DNA of 64,000 bases from Escherichia coli (GTDB lineage Bacteria > Pseudomonadota > Gammaproteobacteria > Enterobacterales > Enterobacteriaceae): the NCBI RefSeq assembly GCF_036507355.1, contig NZ_AP027877.1. The stretch is one strand, 5' to 3'. This document shows positions 4,425 through 18,582 of this stretch, piece after piece (the first letter of the stretch is position 1; every line of letters starts with the position of its first letter). The notes beneath the pieces were generated by a model that saw nothing but the letters and a program-made list of their open reading frames with translations, searched no databases and was not told where the DNA came from. A program made the position numbers and the translations under genes.

Positions 4425-5237
4425 CTAGACACTTCCGAGCCGTTGATAATACTGGTTTTCATATTCTGTCGGTGACATCTGATCGCTGGAACCATGCCGA
4501 CGCTTACTGTTATAAAACATTTCGATGTAATCAAAAATATCGCTGCGGGCTTCTTCCCGCGTTCCGTAGATCTTTTTCTTTATCCGTTCGCGTTTCAACA
4601 ACTGGAAAAAGCTTTCTGCAACCGCATTATCATGGCAGTTACCGCGACGGCTCATGCTGCCATCCAGGCCGTGTGATTTCAGGAACGACTGCCACTCATG
4701 GCTTGTGTACTGACTGCCCTGATCCGAATGAACCAGCACCTGTTTTTGGGGATTACGGCGCCATACAGCCATCAGCAGTGCGTTCAGGACAATGTCCTTT
4801 GTCATCCGGGATTGCATGGACCAGCCGATAATTTTGCGTGAGAACAGATCAACAACCACGGCAAGATACAGCCAGCCTTCGTGGGTCCTGATGTAGGTTA
4901 TGTCCGTTACCCAACGCTTATCCGGAGCATCCGGATTGAACTGTCGCTGGAGCCTGTTGGGCGACACGATACTGGCCTCGCCTTTACGTGCCCGCGGGCT
5001 CCGGTATCCGACCTGAGCCTTTATCCCGACACGTTTCATCAGTCGCCAGACTCTGTTCACTCCGCACTGTTGCCCGCTGTCCCGCAGATCCAGATGGATT
5101 TTGCGATAACCATAGACGCATCCCGATTCCAGCCAGAACTGTTTAATCTGCCCTGTCAGCCTCAGGTCTGCCTGATGGCGTTGTGAATGCGGCTGCTGAA
5201 GCCAGGCGTAAAAACCACTGGGATGAACATCCAGCAC
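4425..5237 (-). CDS. IS3-family transposase OrfB (DDE integrase domain); expressed as OrfAB fusion by -1 frameshift
   Basis: 270-aa ORF from first Met; motifs DITYIRTHEGWLYLAVVVDLFSRKIIGW and HSDQGSQYTS; frame stays open upstream of the Met. Confidence 0.8.
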   Translation of the reverse strand: MLDVHPSGFYAWLQQPHSQRHQADLRLTGQIKQFWLESGCVYGYRKIHLDLRDSGQQCGVNRVWRLMKRVGIKAQVGYRSPRARKGEASIVSPNRLQRQFNPDAPDKRWVTDITYIRTHEGWLYLAVVVDLFSRKIIGWSMQSRMTKDIVLNALLMAVWRRNPQKQVLVHSDQGSQYTSHEWQSFLKSHGLDGSMSRRGNCHDNAVAESFFQLLKRERIKKKIYGTREEARSDIFDYIEMFYNSKRRHGSSDQMSPTEYENQYYQRLGSV

Positions 5238-5293
5238 CCGACAGAGCAGGCGAACAGGCCAGCAACAGGTGTTGTCACGGATAAAGGCGTACC

Positions 5294-5578
5294 TCAGTCG
5301 GACAGCTTTGCGAAGTACGCCGCGGCTTTTTTTAATATGTCCCGTTCGTCGGTAACCCGCTTCAGCTCTTTCTGGAGACGGCGGATCTCGGCCTGAGCAT
5401 CTGACTGTTCTTTATTAGCGGAAGAATCCGGACCGTACTTCTTTATCCAGGCGTAAAGGCTGTGGGTGGTGATATCGAGACGTGTTGCAACGCTGGCAAC
5501 AGAATAACCGCGATCAACAACCTGTTTGACTGCTTCAATTTTAAACTCTTCGGGATAACGCTTACCGCTCATGGGCAC
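5294..5578 (-). CDS. IS3-family transposase OrfA (HTH plus leucine zipper)
   Basis: 94-aa ORF MPMSGKRYPEEFKIEAVKQV...; ends near an A7G slippery run. Confidence 0.8.
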   Translation of the reverse strand: MPMSGKRYPEEFKIEAVKQVVDRGYSVASVATRLDITTHSLYAWIKKYGPDSSANKEQSDAQAEIRRLQKELKRVTDERDILKKAAAYFAKLSD

Positions 5579-5635
5579 CTCTCTTTAAGCCATCTTAAAT
5601 GACTCTGAGGTGTCTGTTAAACCCGTGGCGATTCA

Positions 5636-6036
5636 GGAAGAGTTCGAAATACGCAGCGAAATTGTTGGAATTCAAATTAGTTGATCTTGACGTTCTTAAG
5701 CGAACATACTTCTTTTTTGCAGACCGTTATCTGGCAGATGTAGTGAAGTTTGAAAACCTATGTGGTGATTTAGAGCATACATCGCAGAAGGCTAGGGATG
5801 AAAAAATTAAGGCCATGCAATTAAAGACAAACGACCCTGAAATTCAGTTAGGTGTTTGTATTTTTGTTTGTTTCAGGTTGCGAAACAACCTTTTTCATGG
5901 ACCAAAATGGCGTTATTTGCTTGATGGGCAAGAGGATTTGCTCTTAATTGCCGGAAATTTTATACATTCTATTCTATTACAGGTGCCTAGTAGAGATGGC
6001 TGGGAATTCAAGAATATTTTAACTTCTACTGATTAG
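5636..6036 (+). pseudogene. 3' fragment of an Abi-like (Abi_2 / HEPN-type) abortive-infection gene, truncated at the IS boundary
   Basis: Open frame starts exactly at the IS end with no start codon; C-terminal ...FRLRNNLFHGPKWRYLLDGQEDLLL contains an Rx4H HEPN-like motif; AT-rich. Confidence 0.4.
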
Positions 6037-6221
6037 CTTTGATTTTCCATAATCAACCCGCCATAATCATGTCATCGGAGCCTGAACAACTCCGGTGACT
6101 TCTGCGCTTTGAGGGGACTCAAAGTGCAAACGACAATCAGAACACCTTTCAACCAGTCACAGATGCAGAAATGCACCTGCAATATCTTGCATCCAACGTT
6201 TGACCTCTGCGGAGGTGAAGC

Positions 6222-7696: not shown

Positions 7697-8089
7697 TTGT
7701 GGAGTAAGTTGATGCGTGATATTCAGATGGTTCTTGAGCGTTGGGGAGCGTGGGCGGCTAATAATCATGAAGATGTGACCTGGTCGTCCATTGCCGCCGG
7801 TTTTAAGGGATTAATTCCTTCAAAAGTAAAATCTCGCCCACAATGTTGTGACGATGACGCGATGATCATTTGCGGGTGCATGGCCCGTCTGAAAAAGAAC
7901 AACAGCGATTTGCATGATTTATTGGTGGACTATTATGTCGGCGGCATGACTTTTATGGCGCTTGCACGTAAGCATGGGCGATCTGATTGTTGGGTTGGCA
8001 GGATGCTCCAGAAAGCTGAGGGCGTAGTGGAGGGTATGCTGATGGTGTTGGATCTCCGATTGGAGATGGATGCTGATTGTTCGAAATAA
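7697..8089 (+). CDS. Late-gene antitermination protein Q (QuuD / phage-82-type)
   Basis: 130-aa ORF (true start may be Met at 7712); Cys-rich zinc-binding region [16 protein letters not shown]; followed by terminator tR'. Confidence 0.8.
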
Positions 8090-8187
8090 TTAAAGGAAAA
8101 GTTGCTGTCTGATTGTCATTAGTCTAACATTTTAAATGTTGGAATCGCAACGTAGTTATTATCATATAACAGCTTGTTTCCTGATTT
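8090..8187 (+). promoter_or_regulatory. Probable late promoter pR' / qut region
   Basis: Position immediately 3' of Q and 5' of a strong terminator, as in lambdoid late control regions; promoter hexamers not confidently assigned. Confidence 0.3.
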
Positions 8188-8217
8188 AGCCAGCCTCCCC
8201 AAAGGCTGGTTTTTTTC
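8188..8217 (+). terminator. Rho-independent terminator (tR'-like)
   Basis: AGCCAGCCT-CCCCAA-AGGCTGGT hairpin followed by TTTTTTT. Confidence 0.55.
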
Positions 8218-8244
8218 TAATAAGTATTATTTCGGGTAGGGATT

Positions 8245-8769
8245 TTATTGTTTAACCCATAATAATTCATTGACATTGAATCCCAACTTTTGAGCGGTTC
8301 GCACATAGTCTGCTTTTACTTTATCTGGAATAGTTGGGGTCCTTGCCAGAATCCATAGGTATTCTCTGTTCGGACCACTGACAAGAGCATACTTATACTC
8401 ATCATCCAGTTTGATTACATTATAGCCACCATAGAAGGGGCCAAAAAACGAAACCTTCAATGCTGCAGTTTTAGTATCTCCAGTAAAGTATGCTTTACCT
8501 TCGCTCTCGCTCCATTTATTTTTCGTTGGATCGTATCCACGGTTAAGTACACGAATCCCTCCGTCGTTCCGTTTTCCATAAGTAGCGCTGACCTGTTCCA
8601 GATCACGTTCGAACCGGTTCTCGAGGCGAGCTATTTCATACCATTTTCCGAGGTAGCGGTTGGCGTCAAAATTTGTAATCGGCTGCACACCTTTAGGTGG
8701 TGTCGGGGCCTTACATGCTATAAGAGTGAAAGAGAGTGCAATGCCAGTCAACACAGGCCATAACTTCAT
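8245..8769 (-). CDS. Outer-membrane lipocalin, Blc homologue (lipoprotein)
   Basis: 174 aa; lipobox LIAC; NFDANRYLGKWYEIARLENRFERDLEQV...KVSFFGPFYGGYNVI closely parallels E. coli Blc; opposite strand to phage late genes. Confidence 0.85.
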   Translation of the reverse strand: MKLWPVLTGIALSFTLIACKAPTPPKGVQPITNFDANRYLGKWYEIARLENRFERDLEQVSATYGKRNDGGIRVLNRGYDPTKNKWSESEGKAYFTGDTKTAALKVSFFGPFYGGYNVIKLDDEYKYALVSGPNREYLWILARTPTIPDKVKADYVRTAQKLGFNVNELLWVKQ

Positions 8770-8961: not shown

Positions 8962-9921
8962 ATGATAAAAAAACCTGTGATTGGAATCAGCGGTTGTTTG
9001 GCCGGTTCTGCTGTTCGTTTTGATGGTGGTCACAAAAGAGCTGACTTTTTAATGGACAAATTAGTGGAATGGGTAACATTCAGACCAGTATGTCCGGAAA
9101 TGGCTATAGGGCTGCCAGTTCCGCGTCCTGCTCTACGTCTTGTGCGCTCGACGCAAGGAAATATACGGATGTGTTTCAGCCACGACCAGAATGAGGATGT
9201 GACAGAGAGAATGACAGAGTTTAGTCGTTCTTATATGGACAAATTAAAGGATGTATCGGGGTTTGTGGTTTGTGCTAAATCTCCCAGCTGTGGCATGGAG
9301 CGCGTGCGTGTCTATGATGAAAATGGTAATCGAGGTCGTAAAGATGGAGTGGGACTATTTACGAGTACTTTGATGGAAAAGTTTTCCTGGCTACCGGTTG
9401 AAGAGGATGGGCGATTACATGATCCAGTGCTTCGTGAGAATTTTGTTGAAAGAGTTTTTGCTTTGCATGAGCTCAATCACCTTTACAAGGAGAAATTATC
9501 AAGAAGAGAGTTATTAGCTTTTCATAGTCGTTATAAGCTTCAGTTGTTGGCGCATAGTCAGGCAGGCTATAAAGATATGGGACCATTTGTGGCTGCAATA
9601 CACGAGTGGGCGGACCTTGAATCATACTTTGAGGTGTATCGTGATAAGCTGATGGCGATTCTCAGAAAACCTGCATCACGTAAAAATCACACGAATGTGC
9701 TGATGCATATACAGGGGTATTTTAGTAACTACTTAAGTACACGCCAGCGTAAAGAGTTGAGCGAGGTTATACTTAACTATCGTTCTGGCACATTACCTCT
9801 TCTTGCGCCGTTGACTCTGCTGAAGCATTATCTGGGTGAGTATCCTAATGATTACTTGCTTACACAGAATTACTTCGATCCCTATCCGGACGAACTGGCT
9901 CTAAGACTGATGGTAAATTAA
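8962..9921 (+). CDS. DUF523 (TudS-like thiouracil desulfidase, Fe-S) fused to DUF1722 (YbgA-like) protein
   Basis: 319 aa; N-terminal GISGCLAGSAVRFDGG, PVCPEMAIGLPVPR and SPSCGMERV cysteine motifs typical of DUF523; C-terminal LRENFVERVFALHEL...YKLQLLAHSQAGY typical of DUF1722. Confidence 0.55.
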   Translation: MIKKPVIGISGCLAGSAVRFDGGHKRADFLMDKLVEWVTFRPVCPEMAIGLPVPRPALRLVRSTQGNIRMCFSHDQNEDVTERMTEFSRSYMDKLKDVSGFVVCAKSPSCGMERVRVYDENGNRGRKDGVGLFTSTLMEKFSWLPVEEDGRLHDPVLRENFVERVFALHELNHLYKEKLSRRELLAFHSRYKLQLLAHSQAGYKDMGPFVAAIHEWADLESYFEVYRDKLMAILRKPASRKNHTNVLMHIQGYFSNYLSTRQRKELSEVILNYRSGTLPLLAPLTLLKHYLGEYPNDYLLTQNYFDPYPDELALRLMVN

Positions 9922-10263: not shown

Positions 10264-11004
10264 GTGGATAATATGCCATACATATGTTCTATCATTTTGG
10301 TGTTGAACTCGTTTGATGTCCGAATTGGTAAAGAAGATATTTTGTTTAAAAAAGGAAGTGCTGTTCTCATTGATTACAATTTAAAAGATTTTTTTTCATC
10401 AAATATAGATCATGTAATGATCGTAGATGTTGAAGAGAAAACAGTTAATGATTTCTTTAAAAGCAACACACTCTCACCTTTTTCTGTAAGAAGGTTTTAT
10501 CCGGCATACTTGATGGTGGAATGTGAAGATTTTTCATTGTTAAAGAACTTGATTGCATGCTTGAATTGTGATGGCAGAACTGTGGATTTTGTTAGAAATC
10601 AAATATCACTTGCATGTCTTGCTATCTTATCTTCAGAGAAAATAGTGCAAAGTTTTTTATTTGGATGTCTTAATAGTTTAGGAAGTAAAGTTAAGGCTAT
10701 TATTCACACGGATATATCTGCAGCATGGAGACTTTGTGATATATCTTCAAGACTGTATCTGAGTGAAAGTCTGTTAAAAAGAAAATTAAAGCACGAAGGC
10801 TTATCATTTAGTAAGTTAATTCTTGAAGAGCGAATGGTGATGGCGGAAAGGTTATTAAGCTACAATTTATATTCTGTTGGAAAAGTTGCTGAGATATGCG
10901 GTTATGAAAACACGTCATATTTTGTGAGTGTTTTCAGAAGATATTTTGGTGTTCCTCCCCATCAATATTCATCAAGATTTTTTTTAGAAAAAGACATGAT
11001 GTAA
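10264..11004 (+). CDS. AraC-family transcriptional regulator, AppY/EnvY-like
   Basis: 246 aa; C-terminal double HTH (WRLCDISSRLYLSESLLKRKLK...VGKVAEICGYENTSYFVSVFRRYFGVPP); very AT-rich gene and upstream region. Confidence 0.8.
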   Translation: MDNMPYICSIILVLNSFDVRIGKEDILFKKGSAVLIDYNLKDFFSSNIDHVMIVDVEEKTVNDFFKSNTLSPFSVRRFYPAYLMVECEDFSLLKNLIACLNCDGRTVDFVRNQISLACLAILSSEKIVQSFLFGCLNSLGSKVKAIIHTDISAAWRLCDISSRLYLSESLLKRKLKHEGLSFSKLILEERMVMAERLLSYNLYSVGKVAEICGYENTSYFVSVFRRYFGVPPHQYSSRFFLEKDMM

Positions 11005-11065: not shown

Positions 11066-11097
11066 ACGCCAGAATAATCGCTGGCGTTTTTCTTTTT
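11066..11097 (+). terminator. Rho-independent terminator after the AraC-like gene
   Basis: ACGCCAG-AATAATCG-CTGGCGT hairpin followed by TTTTTCTTTTT. Confidence 0.4.
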
Positions 11098-11192: not shown

Positions 11193-11408
11193 ATGAAATC
11201 TATGGATAAGTTAACAACGGGCATTGCCTACGGCACCTCCGCAGGCAGTGCTGGCTACTGGTTTTTACAGTTGCTCGATAAAGTCACGCCCTCACAGTGG
11301 GCAGCAATAGGTGTGCTGGGTAGCCTGGTATTTGGCCTGCTGACGTACCTGACAAACCTTTATTTCAAGATTAAAGAAGATAAGCGCAAGGCTGCGAGAG
11401 GTGAATAA
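11193..11408 (+). CDS. Class II holin (phage-21 S21-type pinholin)
   Basis: 71 aa, [26 protein letters not shown]..., two TM segments, matches recalled S21/EssD. Confidence 0.85.
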
Positions 11409-11905
11409 TGCCTCCATCATTACGAAAAGCCGTTGCTGCTGCTATTGGTGGCGGAGCAATTGCTATAGCATCAGTGTTAATCACTGGCCCAAGTGGTAAC
11501 GATGGTCTGGAAGGTGTCAGCTACATACCATACAAAGATATTGTTGGTGTATGGACTGTATGTCACGGGCATACAGGAAAAGACATCATGCTCGGTAAAA
11601 CGTATACCAAAGCAGAATGCAAAGCCCTCCTGAATAAAGACCTTGCCACGGTCGCCAGACAAATTAACCCGTACATAAAAGTTGATATACCGGAAACAAC
11701 GCGCGGCGCTCTTTACTTGTTCGTTTACAACGTGGGCGCTGGCAATTTCAGAACATCGACGCTTCTTCGCAAAATAAACCAGGGCGATATCAAAGGCGCA
11801 TGTGATCAGCTACGTCGCTGGACATATGCTGGCGGTAAGCAATGGAAAGGGCTGATGACTCGCCGTGAGATTGAGCGTGAAGTCTGTTTGTGGGGGCAAC
11901 AATGA
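11408..11905 (+). CDS. SAR endolysin (phage-21 R-type lysozyme)
   Basis: 165 aa; N-terminal Gly/Ala-rich signal-anchor-release segment [18 protein letters not shown]; lysozyme catalytic region. Confidence 0.88.
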
Positions 11906-12345
11906 GTAGAGTAACCGCGATTATCTCCGCTCTGGTTATCAGCATCATCGTCTGCCTGTCATGGGCTGTTAATCATTACCGTGATAACGCCATGACCTAC
12001 AAAGAACAGCGCGACAAAGCCACATCCATCATCGCTGACATGCAGAAGCGTCAACATGATGTAGCAGAACTCGACGCCAGATACACAAAGGAGCTTGCTG
12101 ATGCTAACGCGACTATCGAAAGTCTTCGTGCTGATGTTTCTGCTGGTCGTAAGTGGCTGCACGTCAAAGCAGTCTGTCCGGACAAGCATAAAACCACCGC
12201 CGCCTCCGGCGTGGATGATGCTTCCAGCCCCAGACTTACTGACACCGCTCAACGGGATTATTTCGTTCTCAGAGAGCGCATCGAAACCATAACTAACCAA
12301 TTGAATGGCCTGCAAGAATATGTGAGATCACAGTGTTCATATTAG
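11902..12345 (+). CDS. i-spanin Rz
   Basis: N-terminal TM helix then coiled-coil periplasmic domain; overlaps endolysin stop. Confidence 0.8.
12101..12292 (+). CDS. o-spanin Rz1 (lipoprotein) embedded in +1 frame of Rz
   Basis: Lipobox LVVSGC followed by Pro-rich stretch KPPPPPAW; entirely inside Rz. Confidence 0.65.
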
Positions 12346-12758
12346 AAAAGTCTTATCATAAGATTTTTGTATATGGATGCATTATGTCTCAATACGCTCA
12401 CGTTGCTTTAATCGCTTATCATTTGGTGGCTGATAGCTCAATGACTCCTCGTGATGCATGGGATGCAGCTATCGCAGAGGTTACAGAAAGCGAATCGTCA
12501 AGAAAGAAGATATGCCCAAGGGCAACATTTCTCGCCCTGGCGGATAGCGGTTACCTGAAGAATGTAAAACCACTGCATGGGGAGAAAAAGGGCGGTAAGT
12601 TGTACCAAAGGGCAATTGAAGTTGCGAATCTGATTCTTGATTTACCCGGAATCAGTAAAGCTGAATTGGTTGATAAAACTGGTTACAAAGACAGGCAAGG
12701 GTCTTATGACCTGATTCTCGCTCTGTATCATCATGAGCAACTCCAGCGATCGGAATAA
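12333..12758 (+). CDS. YbcV-like hypothetical phage protein
   Basis: 141-aa ORF (start possibly Met at 12386) at the position of ybcV in DLP12; no recognisable motif. Confidence 0.4.
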
Positions 12759-17922: not shown

Positions 17923-18582
17923 ATGGCGGTTGATATTAAAGATGTCGAACAGGTCGCGCAGGAGCTGCAGCAGAAGTTTGACGACTTCAAAGCAAAGAAC
18001 GACAAGCGCGTGGATGCGATTGAGCAGGAAAAAGGCAAGCTTGCCGGGCAGGTGGAAACCCTGAACGGGAAACTCAGCGAGCTGGAAAATCTCAAAAGCG
18101 ACCTTGAAAAAGAGCTGTTTGAGCTGAAACGTCCGGCAACGGCGTATGTCGAAAGCGGGGTGCTGCGCATTCAGCGTGATGTCACCACGTACAGGAAAAA
18201 TGCTTACGGGGTTGCGGATAACAGCTACCTCGACAGCGAGACGCTGCATACCAGTGCGTATGTACTGCGCAAACTGAAATCCGTCATTACCAGTAAGTAC
18301 GGGCGTCACAAGCTTGCCAGCGACGGTACCCGCTTTGGTCCCGGTCAGGCGATTGTCACCCCGGCGGTGATCAAAGGGGAACTGCTGGCAACCTACCGTC
18401 AGCTTGGGCGTGCGGGGATCGTGGAAAACTACGAACTGTTTAAGCAGTACCTGGTTGTGGAGCGTGATGCCAGCGATCCGAACCGCCTGAACACGCTGTT
18501 CCCGCCTGACTATGTTAACCAGTTGCGTGTCTTTGCCGTGGTTAACCAGTTCCGTCTTCAGTATTCAGAGGAGTCTGCATAA
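17923..18582 (+). CDS. Phage structural protein; N-terminal coiled-coil resembling the delta domain of an HK97-like major capsid protein but far too short (219 aa); probable deletion remnant
   Basis: N-terminus AQELQQKFDDFKAKNDKRVDAIEQEKGKLAGQVETLNGKL is delta-domain-like; a complete capsid gene would be about 400 codons. Confidence 0.35.
   Translation: MAVDIKDVEQVAQELQQKFDDFKAKNDKRVDAIEQEKGKLAGQVETLNGKLSELENLKSDLEKELFELKRPATAYVESGVLRIQRDVTTYRKNAYGVADNSYLDSETLHTSAYVLRKLKSVITSKYGRHKLASDGTRFGPGQAIVTPAVIKGELLATYRQLGRAGIVENYELFKQYLVVERDASDPNRLNTLFPPDYVNQLRVFAVVNQFRLQYSEESA

Follow-up and report, generated by a model that had tools for sequence, protein, structure and literature searches.

A prophage-borne TudS-DUF1722 gene of Escherichia coli predicted to encode the tRNA 4-thiouridine desulfidase RudS

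The stretch of Escherichia coli DNA studied here (64,000 nucleotides of contig NZ_AP027877.1, hereafter the window) contains a lambdoid prophage inserted at a tRNA-Arg(CCT) gene (23780-23854), with an integrase gene (22461..23654) adjoining. Between the Q antiterminator gene and the lysis genes of this prophage lies rudS, the gene under study: an uninterrupted open reading frame that starts with ATG, is preceded by a strong Shine-Dalgarno sequence (AAGGGGGAG) and encodes 319 amino acids. An earlier note, drawn from the nucleotide sequence alone, had described the product as a fusion of DUF523, a family of TudS-like iron-sulfur desulfidases, to a YbgA-like DUF1722 domain, carried as cargo in the phage late operon. 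The fusion is borne out by Pfam, which places PF04463 (2-thiour_desulf, that is DUF523/TudS; E 1.6e-39) on residues 7-149 and PF08349 (DUF1722; E 2.2e-40) on residues 192-309 of the same polypeptide. The likeness to YbgA holds as well: residues 160-315 match the YbgA equivalog model NF007549 with 190.8 bits (E 1.4e-56), which is under the cut-off of 237. Since the match is below cut-off and covers these residues rather than the whole protein, an identity as YbgA was rejected. RefSeq annotates the gene as WP_000592546.1, 'YbgA family protein', a name that follows from the C-terminal half matching the YbgA model and that hides the enzyme; the PHROG entry matched by RudS (PHROG 3275, 755 bits) is labelled 'unknown function'.

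The three cysteine motifs pointed out beforehand (GISGCLAG, PVCPE and SPSCG) are all present, as G8-ISGC12-LAG15, P42-VC44-PE46 and S107-PSC110-G111. Residues C12, C44, E46, R55, S107, S109 and C110 are invariant when six close sequences are aligned, and an alignment of 83 diverse homologues has them at 90% conservation or more. The numbering of the three cysteines equals that of RudS_vir and RudS_ST, two characterised proteins described below (Table 1 in PMC11417400). An AlphaFold2 model made from the 83 homologues is confident (pLDDT 96.2, pTM 0.92) and helical over residues 155-317. Upon comparison of this model with the PDB by means of Foldseek, only the TudS structures 6zw9, 6z96, 6z93 and 6z92 were found (probability 1.0, TM 0.72-0.76, 26-27% identity). 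These matches span the N-terminal domain only, and for the helical DUF1722 half Foldseek gave no solved counterpart among PDB structures. A sequence search with phmmer gave TudS 6Z92 and its sibling entries as the only solved relatives (E 2e-4). Structure prediction, which had been proposed as a check on the iron-sulfur site, thus yields a confident model that matches TudS structures only and in which the residues of the three-Cys site are conserved; binding of a cluster is predicted.

Proteins that combine a TudS with a DUF1722 domain have been named RudS and described as tRNA 4-thiouridine (s4U) desulfidases (Jamontas et al. 2024, Nucleic Acids Res 52:10543, PMC11417400). Overexpression of six RudS proteins, RudS_vir included, brought the s4U of E. 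coli tRNA down 4.7- to 26-fold, stand-alone TudS and YbgA left it unaffected, and RudS supported growth poorly on 4-thiouracil and not at all on 2-thiouracil (PMC11417400). Desulfurisation of tRNA s4U was found in vivo for RudS_vir and in vitro for RudS_KT, whose activity was lost on mutating the cluster Cys, Glu51, Ser111, Ser113 or Arg60 (PMC11417400). A model backed by mutations has DUF1722 holding the anticodon arm of tRNA, and with RudS_KT the growth delay that UVA causes in E. coli fell from about 105 to about 60 min (PMC11417400). The same study measured s4U in E. coli tRNA and states that E. coli is without RudS (PMC11417400). On RudS or s4U in prophage biology, literature searches gave only this 2024 paper and reviews citing it. 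The assertion that such a desulfidase had no described role in a prophage is out of date, given that a phage copy 93% identical to the window protein has been tested (PMC11417400).

This copy, RudS_vir, is gp66 of Escherichia phage 1H12 (H3V29_gp66, YP_009909557.1; phage NC_049947) and was one of the six tested proteins, with its cysteines at Cys12, Cys44 and Cys110 (PMC11417400). It has 319 residues and the cysteine numbering of the window protein, and the 21 amino-acid differences between the two include none at a catalytic residue. Their carriers differ: 1H12, a siphovirus, is intact and inducible, and the window copy lies in a remnant with deletions, the relatives of which have myovirus-type tails. 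A protein of phage IdasGreatGrand is 99.7% identical to window RudS, and the gene of E. coli strain C4 is 100% identical to the window copy at the nucleotide level. RudS_ST (ORF319, STM1389 of Salmonella enterica LT2), which lowered s4U 18-fold (PMC11417400), also has 319 residues with cysteines at the same positions, and chromosomal homologues in Citrobacter, Enterobacter and Klebsiella are 73-77% identical to the window protein. RudS_ST and the chromosomal RudS are linked to a MerR-family regulator (PMC11417400) or to a SnoaL/SDR/amine-oxidase/CFA-synthase light-stress operon, whereas the window gene is phage-borne; the GC content at third codon positions (GC3) is 0.63 in the rudS of Citrobacter braakii against 0.40 in the phage copy. 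The biochemically characterised reference is RudS_KT (PP_0741 of Pseudomonas putida KT2440), which has the same two-domain architecture, is more distant and is encoded in a LitR/photolyase operon. Its residues Cys17/49/114, Glu51, Arg60 and Ser111/113 correspond to C12/44/110, E46, R55 and S107/109 of the window protein by a constant numbering offset. Since none of the retrieved representatives matched RudS_KT (19 of 36 marker residues at best), the correspondence of tRNA-binding residues was likewise taken from numbering offsets. Of the non-enterobacterial representatives, those most similar to window RudS reach 40-56% identity.

Two further relatives resemble the window protein in part. TudS (DUF523Vcz; 6Z92/6Z93/6Z96/6ZW9) has the fold of the catalytic domain and the [4Fe-4S] site of three Cys in common with it but lacks DUF1722, and its substrates are free bases and nucleotides (thiouracil / 4-thio-UMP). 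YbgA (b0707 of E. coli K-12) is a stand-alone DUF1722 protein encoded upstream of the photolyase gene phr, without a catalytic domain. An identity as stand-alone TudS, for which a single domain of about 150-170 aa and growth of a uracil auxotroph on thiouracils are expected, was rejected for the window protein because of its 319 residues with a second domain and because the near-identical RudS_vir behaves unlike TudS in the auxotroph assay. Judged from its sequence, the window protein is filed as RudS, a tRNA s4U desulfidase of the TudS+DUF1722 type, and we regard it as probable that it is a functional RudS which turns s4U8 of host tRNA into U at a three-Cys [4Fe-4S] site. A database entry from an E. 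coli contig (P0002, 403 aa) joins about the first 292 residues of this RudS to a GGDEF domain (PF00990); the joint may have arisen by recombination or through faulty assembly.

How strict the phage enzyme is on its substrate bears on this assignment. RudS_vir, whose soluble protein level is high, was for that level the least active on tRNA of the RudS tested, and its lag on 4-thiouracil was the shortest (PMC11417400); for these reasons phage RudS may be less strict on substrate than other RudS. The same behaviour, with an s4U drop less than the soluble protein level predicts (PMC11417400) and with a catalytic domain of TudS fold, would suit an enzyme that mainly desulfurises free 4-thiouracil, 4-thiouridine or 4-thio-UMP from degraded tRNA, in salvage or detoxification, and for which tRNA de-modification is a side activity. 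We consider this improbable. The rescue of a uracil auxotroph by RudS_vir fell short of that by TudS, yet RudS_vir lowered tRNA s4U, which stand-alone TudS left unchanged (PMC11417400). In addition, the tRNA-binding DUF1722 domain has been kept intact under purifying selection, and the pool of free s4U nucleotides is probably tiny, so the gain from salvage would be small. The label of thiouracil or thionucleobase desulfidase given to the protein beforehand therefore names the wrong main substrate, tRNA s4U being preferred over free thiouracil (PMC11417400). Likewise, of the two thiolated pools that it had been suggested to alter, that of tRNA fits the RudS s4U data, and nucleobases as the main target do not.

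The features around the gene are collected in the table below. The predicted placement between Q with its tR' terminator and the holin gene stands. Upstream of the cassette lie ybcN, ninE, ybcO, rusA and ylcG, followed by the Q gene, for which RefSeq gives the name 'antiterminator Q family protein' and a start at 7712.

Table. Coordinates of rudS, its domains and the neighbouring features in the window.
Feature	Position	Strand	Evidence and remarks
rudS (gene under study)	8962..9921	+	ATG start, uninterrupted, 319 aa; Pfam domain pair, identity to RudS_vir
TudS/DUF523 catalytic domain	8980..9408	+	aa 7-149; [4Fe-4S] ligands C12, C44, C110 (predicted); catalytic E46, R55, S107, S109
DUF1722 domain	9535..9888	+	aa 192-309, all-helical; Pfam PF08349; tRNA anticodon-arm role from PMC11417400
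Q antiterminator gene (Q21 family)	7697..8089	+	PHROG 79 'anti-termination protein Q-like', E 1.3e-51; PDB Q21 6p18/6jnx, E 1.9e-8
Putative late promoter PR'	8102..8130	+	-35 TTGCTG 8102-8107, 17-nt spacer, -10 TAACAT 8125-8130; putative, read from the sequence
tR'-like intrinsic terminator	8188..8218 (or 8188-8211)	+	Terminator scan; 9-bp stem with 5 GC pairs, then T7
Blc-type outer-membrane lipocalin lipoprotein gene	8245..8769	-	NCBIfam NF007786 Blc, 312 bits (cut-off 267); PHROG 2809; divergent from rudS
AraC/XylS-family regulator gene (YdeO/GadX-like)	10264..11004	+	NCBIfam best YdeO, 127 bits (cut-off 348); PHROG 1450
Intrinsic terminator between AraC-like gene and holin gene	11066..11097 (or 11066-11087)	+	Terminator scan
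Lysis cassette	11193..12345	+	Holin essD 11193..11408, lysozyme rrrD 11408..11905, Rz-like spanin 11890..12345

The putative PR' lies just after Q, as in lambdoid phages, and its stretch is nearly invariant in 1H12, IdasGreatGrand and E. coli C4; a consensus promoter scan missed it at 8102-8130. Across the four phages and prophages that were aligned, the tR'-like terminator is invariant. The window DNA is collinear with 1H12 between the end of Q and the beginning of rudS, and the gene order of 1H12 (Q, lipocalin on the minus strand, gp66, AraC-like, holin) is that of the window. The leader from PR' to the terminator (8136-8222, plus strand) folds into two hairpins (-24 kcal/mol, z -3.8). Related phages conserve this leader, which might be set free as a small RNA in the manner of the short PR' transcripts of other lambdoid phages. 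Rfam gave nothing near gathering score in the Q-to-holin region (best 28.6 bits against 50). For the AraC-like gene, RefSeq places the start at 10273, and two allele classes were seen, at least 99% and 80-90% identical. In identical DNA RefSeq names the lysis genes essD, rrrD and lysis protein. Directly after the spanin gene follows a conserved phage reading frame for a DUF6979/PHROG 5039 protein (12333-12758, plus strand).

Base composition sets the three accessory genes apart. The nin and lysis genes have a GC content of about 50%, that of rudS is about 43% (GC3 0.40) and that of the AraC-like gene about 31%; in composition the cassette is foreign to the phage backbone. The Q-to-holin junction of lambdoid phages is a known slot for accessory 'moron' genes, such as stx in Stx phages and nmpC in DLP12. 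The window cassette has in common with these morons both the slot, after Q/PR'/tR' and before the holin, and a composition that differs from the backbone; its cargo differs, being a tRNA-modification eraser, a lipocalin and a regulator where stx and nmpC are a toxin and a porin. A derivation in which the lipocalin gene was taken together with rudS from a chromosomal light-stress operon was tried and rejected, since BLASTP found no similarity of the lipocalin to either of the two small proteins encoded beside rudS in C. braakii, the product of a 175-aa open reading frame and DUF3833.

Much of the prophage around the cassette is gone. An IS3-family element (4425-5578) replaces everything left of about position 6039, so that the immunity and replication region is missing, and internal deletions at 18138 and 19114 have removed most head and tail genes; the rudS cassette and the lysis genes are intact within what is left. 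Beside the IS element lies a conserved phage open reading frame of 145 codons (5599-6036, plus strand), which has zero NCBIfam matches. The description of rudS as late-operon cargo can therefore be kept for the ancestral architecture, in which transcription is driven by Q. Its operation in the source genome is doubtful, because the prophage is a remnant without the early region, and for rudS to be expressed in this remnant, either a promoter nearby or a compatible Q protein provided in trans by another prophage would be required.

Carriage of the gene in the species is common. Among 5426 complete E. coli genomes, 1135 (about 21%) contain rudS, and in 1063 of these carriers at least 80% of its length is present. 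With the RefSeq entry, this frequency shows that the gene and its setting did not arise by chance. The lipocalin gene occurs in 1134 and the AraC-like gene in 1033 of the same 5426 genomes; the three cassette genes are co-inherited. About 40 IMG/VR loci, collected with the alignment of six close RudS sequences as query, keep one order (Q, lipocalin, RudS, AraC, holin) between early and structural flanks that vary. Between the window and 1H12 alleles of rudS, dN/dS is 0.10 at a dS of 0.30, which indicates purifying selection within phage genomes.

Insertion sequences were found at the cassette in a number of strains. IS2 or IS3-family elements lie within it or at its edge in several E. coli strains (IS2 in H3, H4, H14 and H15). 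In strain LR-51 (L071 15735-16904) ISEc52 stands in place of Q and the lipocalin gene, and rudS is intact. In E. coli BL21 (L070, NZ_CP053601.1, 3284-5340) the lipocalin gene is kept and an IS3 element ends rudS after 147 nt, by which the BL21 background reads as rudS-null; BL21(DE3) was one host strain of the published s4U measurements (PMC11417400). Such disruptions (BL21, the IS2 matches of H3/H4/H14/H15, LR-51), as well as the loss of the early region and many structural genes in the window prophage and the failure of the consensus scan to establish a rudS promoter, are what one would expect if rudS were a functionless passenger that rides with the Q-lysis module, left over silently in a decaying prophage. 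However, a passenger would hardly show a dN/dS of 0.10 over a dS of 0.30 between phage alleles, or be full-length in 1063 of 1135 carriers with its catalytic residues intact. The gene is moreover kept in remnants already missing structural genes, and RudS cargo recurs in prophages of Providencia and Citrobacter. We therefore give the idea of a mere passenger little credence.

A survey of carriers at this junction, which had also been proposed, found the Q-to-holin order in 1H12, IdasGreatGrand and the IMG/VR loci, and placed RudS just after Q in Providencia and in the nin region in Citrobacter. Prophages of Providencia alcalifaciens encode a RudS 57-59% identical to that of the window (one form has 331 aa), directly 3' of Q and 5' of a cspA-like gene and the lysis genes. 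A Blc-type lipocalin gene accompanies it, directly downstream in locus L065 (4976-5485) and about 5 kb downstream in loci L074-L077 (from about 10968). Because the lipocalin gene is co-distributed with rudS in E. coli and accompanies RudS in Providencia, a functional pairing of the two is suggested, which has not been described previously. In Citrobacter prophages (L044 4001-5423) a 73% identical RudS is found upstream of Q, within the nin region, and a dinI-like gene comes after it. Salmonella Derby (L007 4285-7814) has a near-identical copy between ttcA, the gene for tRNA 2-thiocytidine synthetase, and a DUF1367 phage gene; this locus looks like a prophage remnant. In Providencia locus L065 a retron-type reverse transcriptase gene (1130-2311; NF038233, E 6e-29) was seen about 1.6 kb upstream of RudS.

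The chromosomal relatives lie in light-response operons. A metagenomic contig has the chromosomal-type order RudS-MerR-photolyase-SnoaL-SDR-amine oxidase, and in C. braakii rudS ends a SnoaL/SDR/amine-oxidase/DUF1365/CFA-synthase operon, accompanied by that cluster alone. This context agrees with the discussion in PMC11417400; the phage cassette is without a MerR/LitR gene. It also bears on whether RudS could serve in phage-phage or phage-defence conflict, by blunting a defence nuclease that targets tRNA or by excluding superinfecting phages that need s4U-modified tRNA. Such a role would suit the position of this accessory gene, since conflict or virulence genes are often found in that slot, and it would suit the reverse transcriptase near RudS in Providencia L065. 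On the other hand, the chromosomal context of the family is light stress and not defence (also in PMC11417400), and neither RudS nor the lipocalin or AraC-like protein matched any PADLOC defence model. We know of no defence system that reads s4U8, and a part in such conflict seems very improbable to us. Salvage of free thionucleotides, mere passage and conflict each find some support, but all three suit the data less than desulfurisation of tRNA s4U by RudS.

For the tRNA desulfidase the following course is proposed, with the enzymatic steps carried over to the window protein from its close homologues. The TudS domain would hold a [4Fe-4S] cluster on C12, C44 and C110, of which the free fourth iron would bind the sulfur of 4-thiouridine; E46, oriented by R55, S107 and S109, would then activate a water molecule, and oxygen would replace the sulfur, while the DUF1722 domain docks the enzyme on tRNA. 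E. coli encodes ThiI and has s4U8. The net effect would be conversion of s4U8 (and s4U9) of host tRNA to uridine, by which the near-UV photosensor of tRNA is erased. As to the phage, rudS is the middle gene of a three-gene cassette that a family of lambdoid E. coli phages carries between Q/PR'-tR' and the holin gene. In an intact phage it would be read by Q-modified RNA polymerase after induction, and a promoter of its own (unmapped) may also drive it in lysogens. The pay-off might be tRNA that escapes UVA cross-linking, hence less uncharged tRNA, less growth delay and less of a stringent response, to the benefit of a lysogen in the light or of a sunlight-induced cell that is still translating late phage proteins. 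Lytic development of lambdoid phages is reported to be inhibited by ppGpp; if so, damping the stringent response would be in the interest of the phage.

Several points weigh against this explanation. The window prophage is a defective remnant. The consensus promoter scan returned 13 sites where 11.3 are expected in shuffled sequence, and no convincing promoter upstream of rudS. If expression is confined to the late operon, little time is left before lysis for tRNA de-modification to pay. RudS_vir is the least active on tRNA per protein and has the shortest 4-thiouracil lag, and its substrate preference may be broader than in other RudS. Finally, as MerR/LitR is absent from the phage cassette, its link to light would be by analogy with the chromosomal operons.

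With these points in mind we put forward, as a speculation that is rather unlikely to hold, that the lipocalin-RudS(-AraC) cassette is a phage-borne 'sunlight module'. If true, roughly 1 in 5 E. coli strains would owe their tRNA s4U level, their near-UV growth delay and their stringent response to a prophage. RudS would sustain translation at the very time when prophage-inducing solar UV would cross-link s4U8 to C13 and raise ppGpp, and where prophages of E. coli and Providencia pair RudS with a Blc-type lipocalin, the two would together counter photo-oxidative damage, to tRNA and to the membrane.

The RudS feature is real, was correctly located and had its domains correctly assigned, but it is already explained: both the enzyme family and a near-identical phage copy have been characterised, and no new kind of system is involved. 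Databases still hide the function, under 'YbgA family protein' in RefSeq and 'unknown function' in PHROG 3275. What remains of interest is how common the gene is in E. coli, its repeated association with a lipocalin, and what makes lambdoid phages in at least three genera retain an eraser of a tRNA modification. That E. coli lacks RudS is true of K-12-type strains only, and BL21, a host for the published s4U measurements, holds a truncated rudS. Since about 21% of complete E. coli genomes carry a prophage rudS, natural strains of the species may differ in tRNA s4U content and UVA response owing to their prophages.

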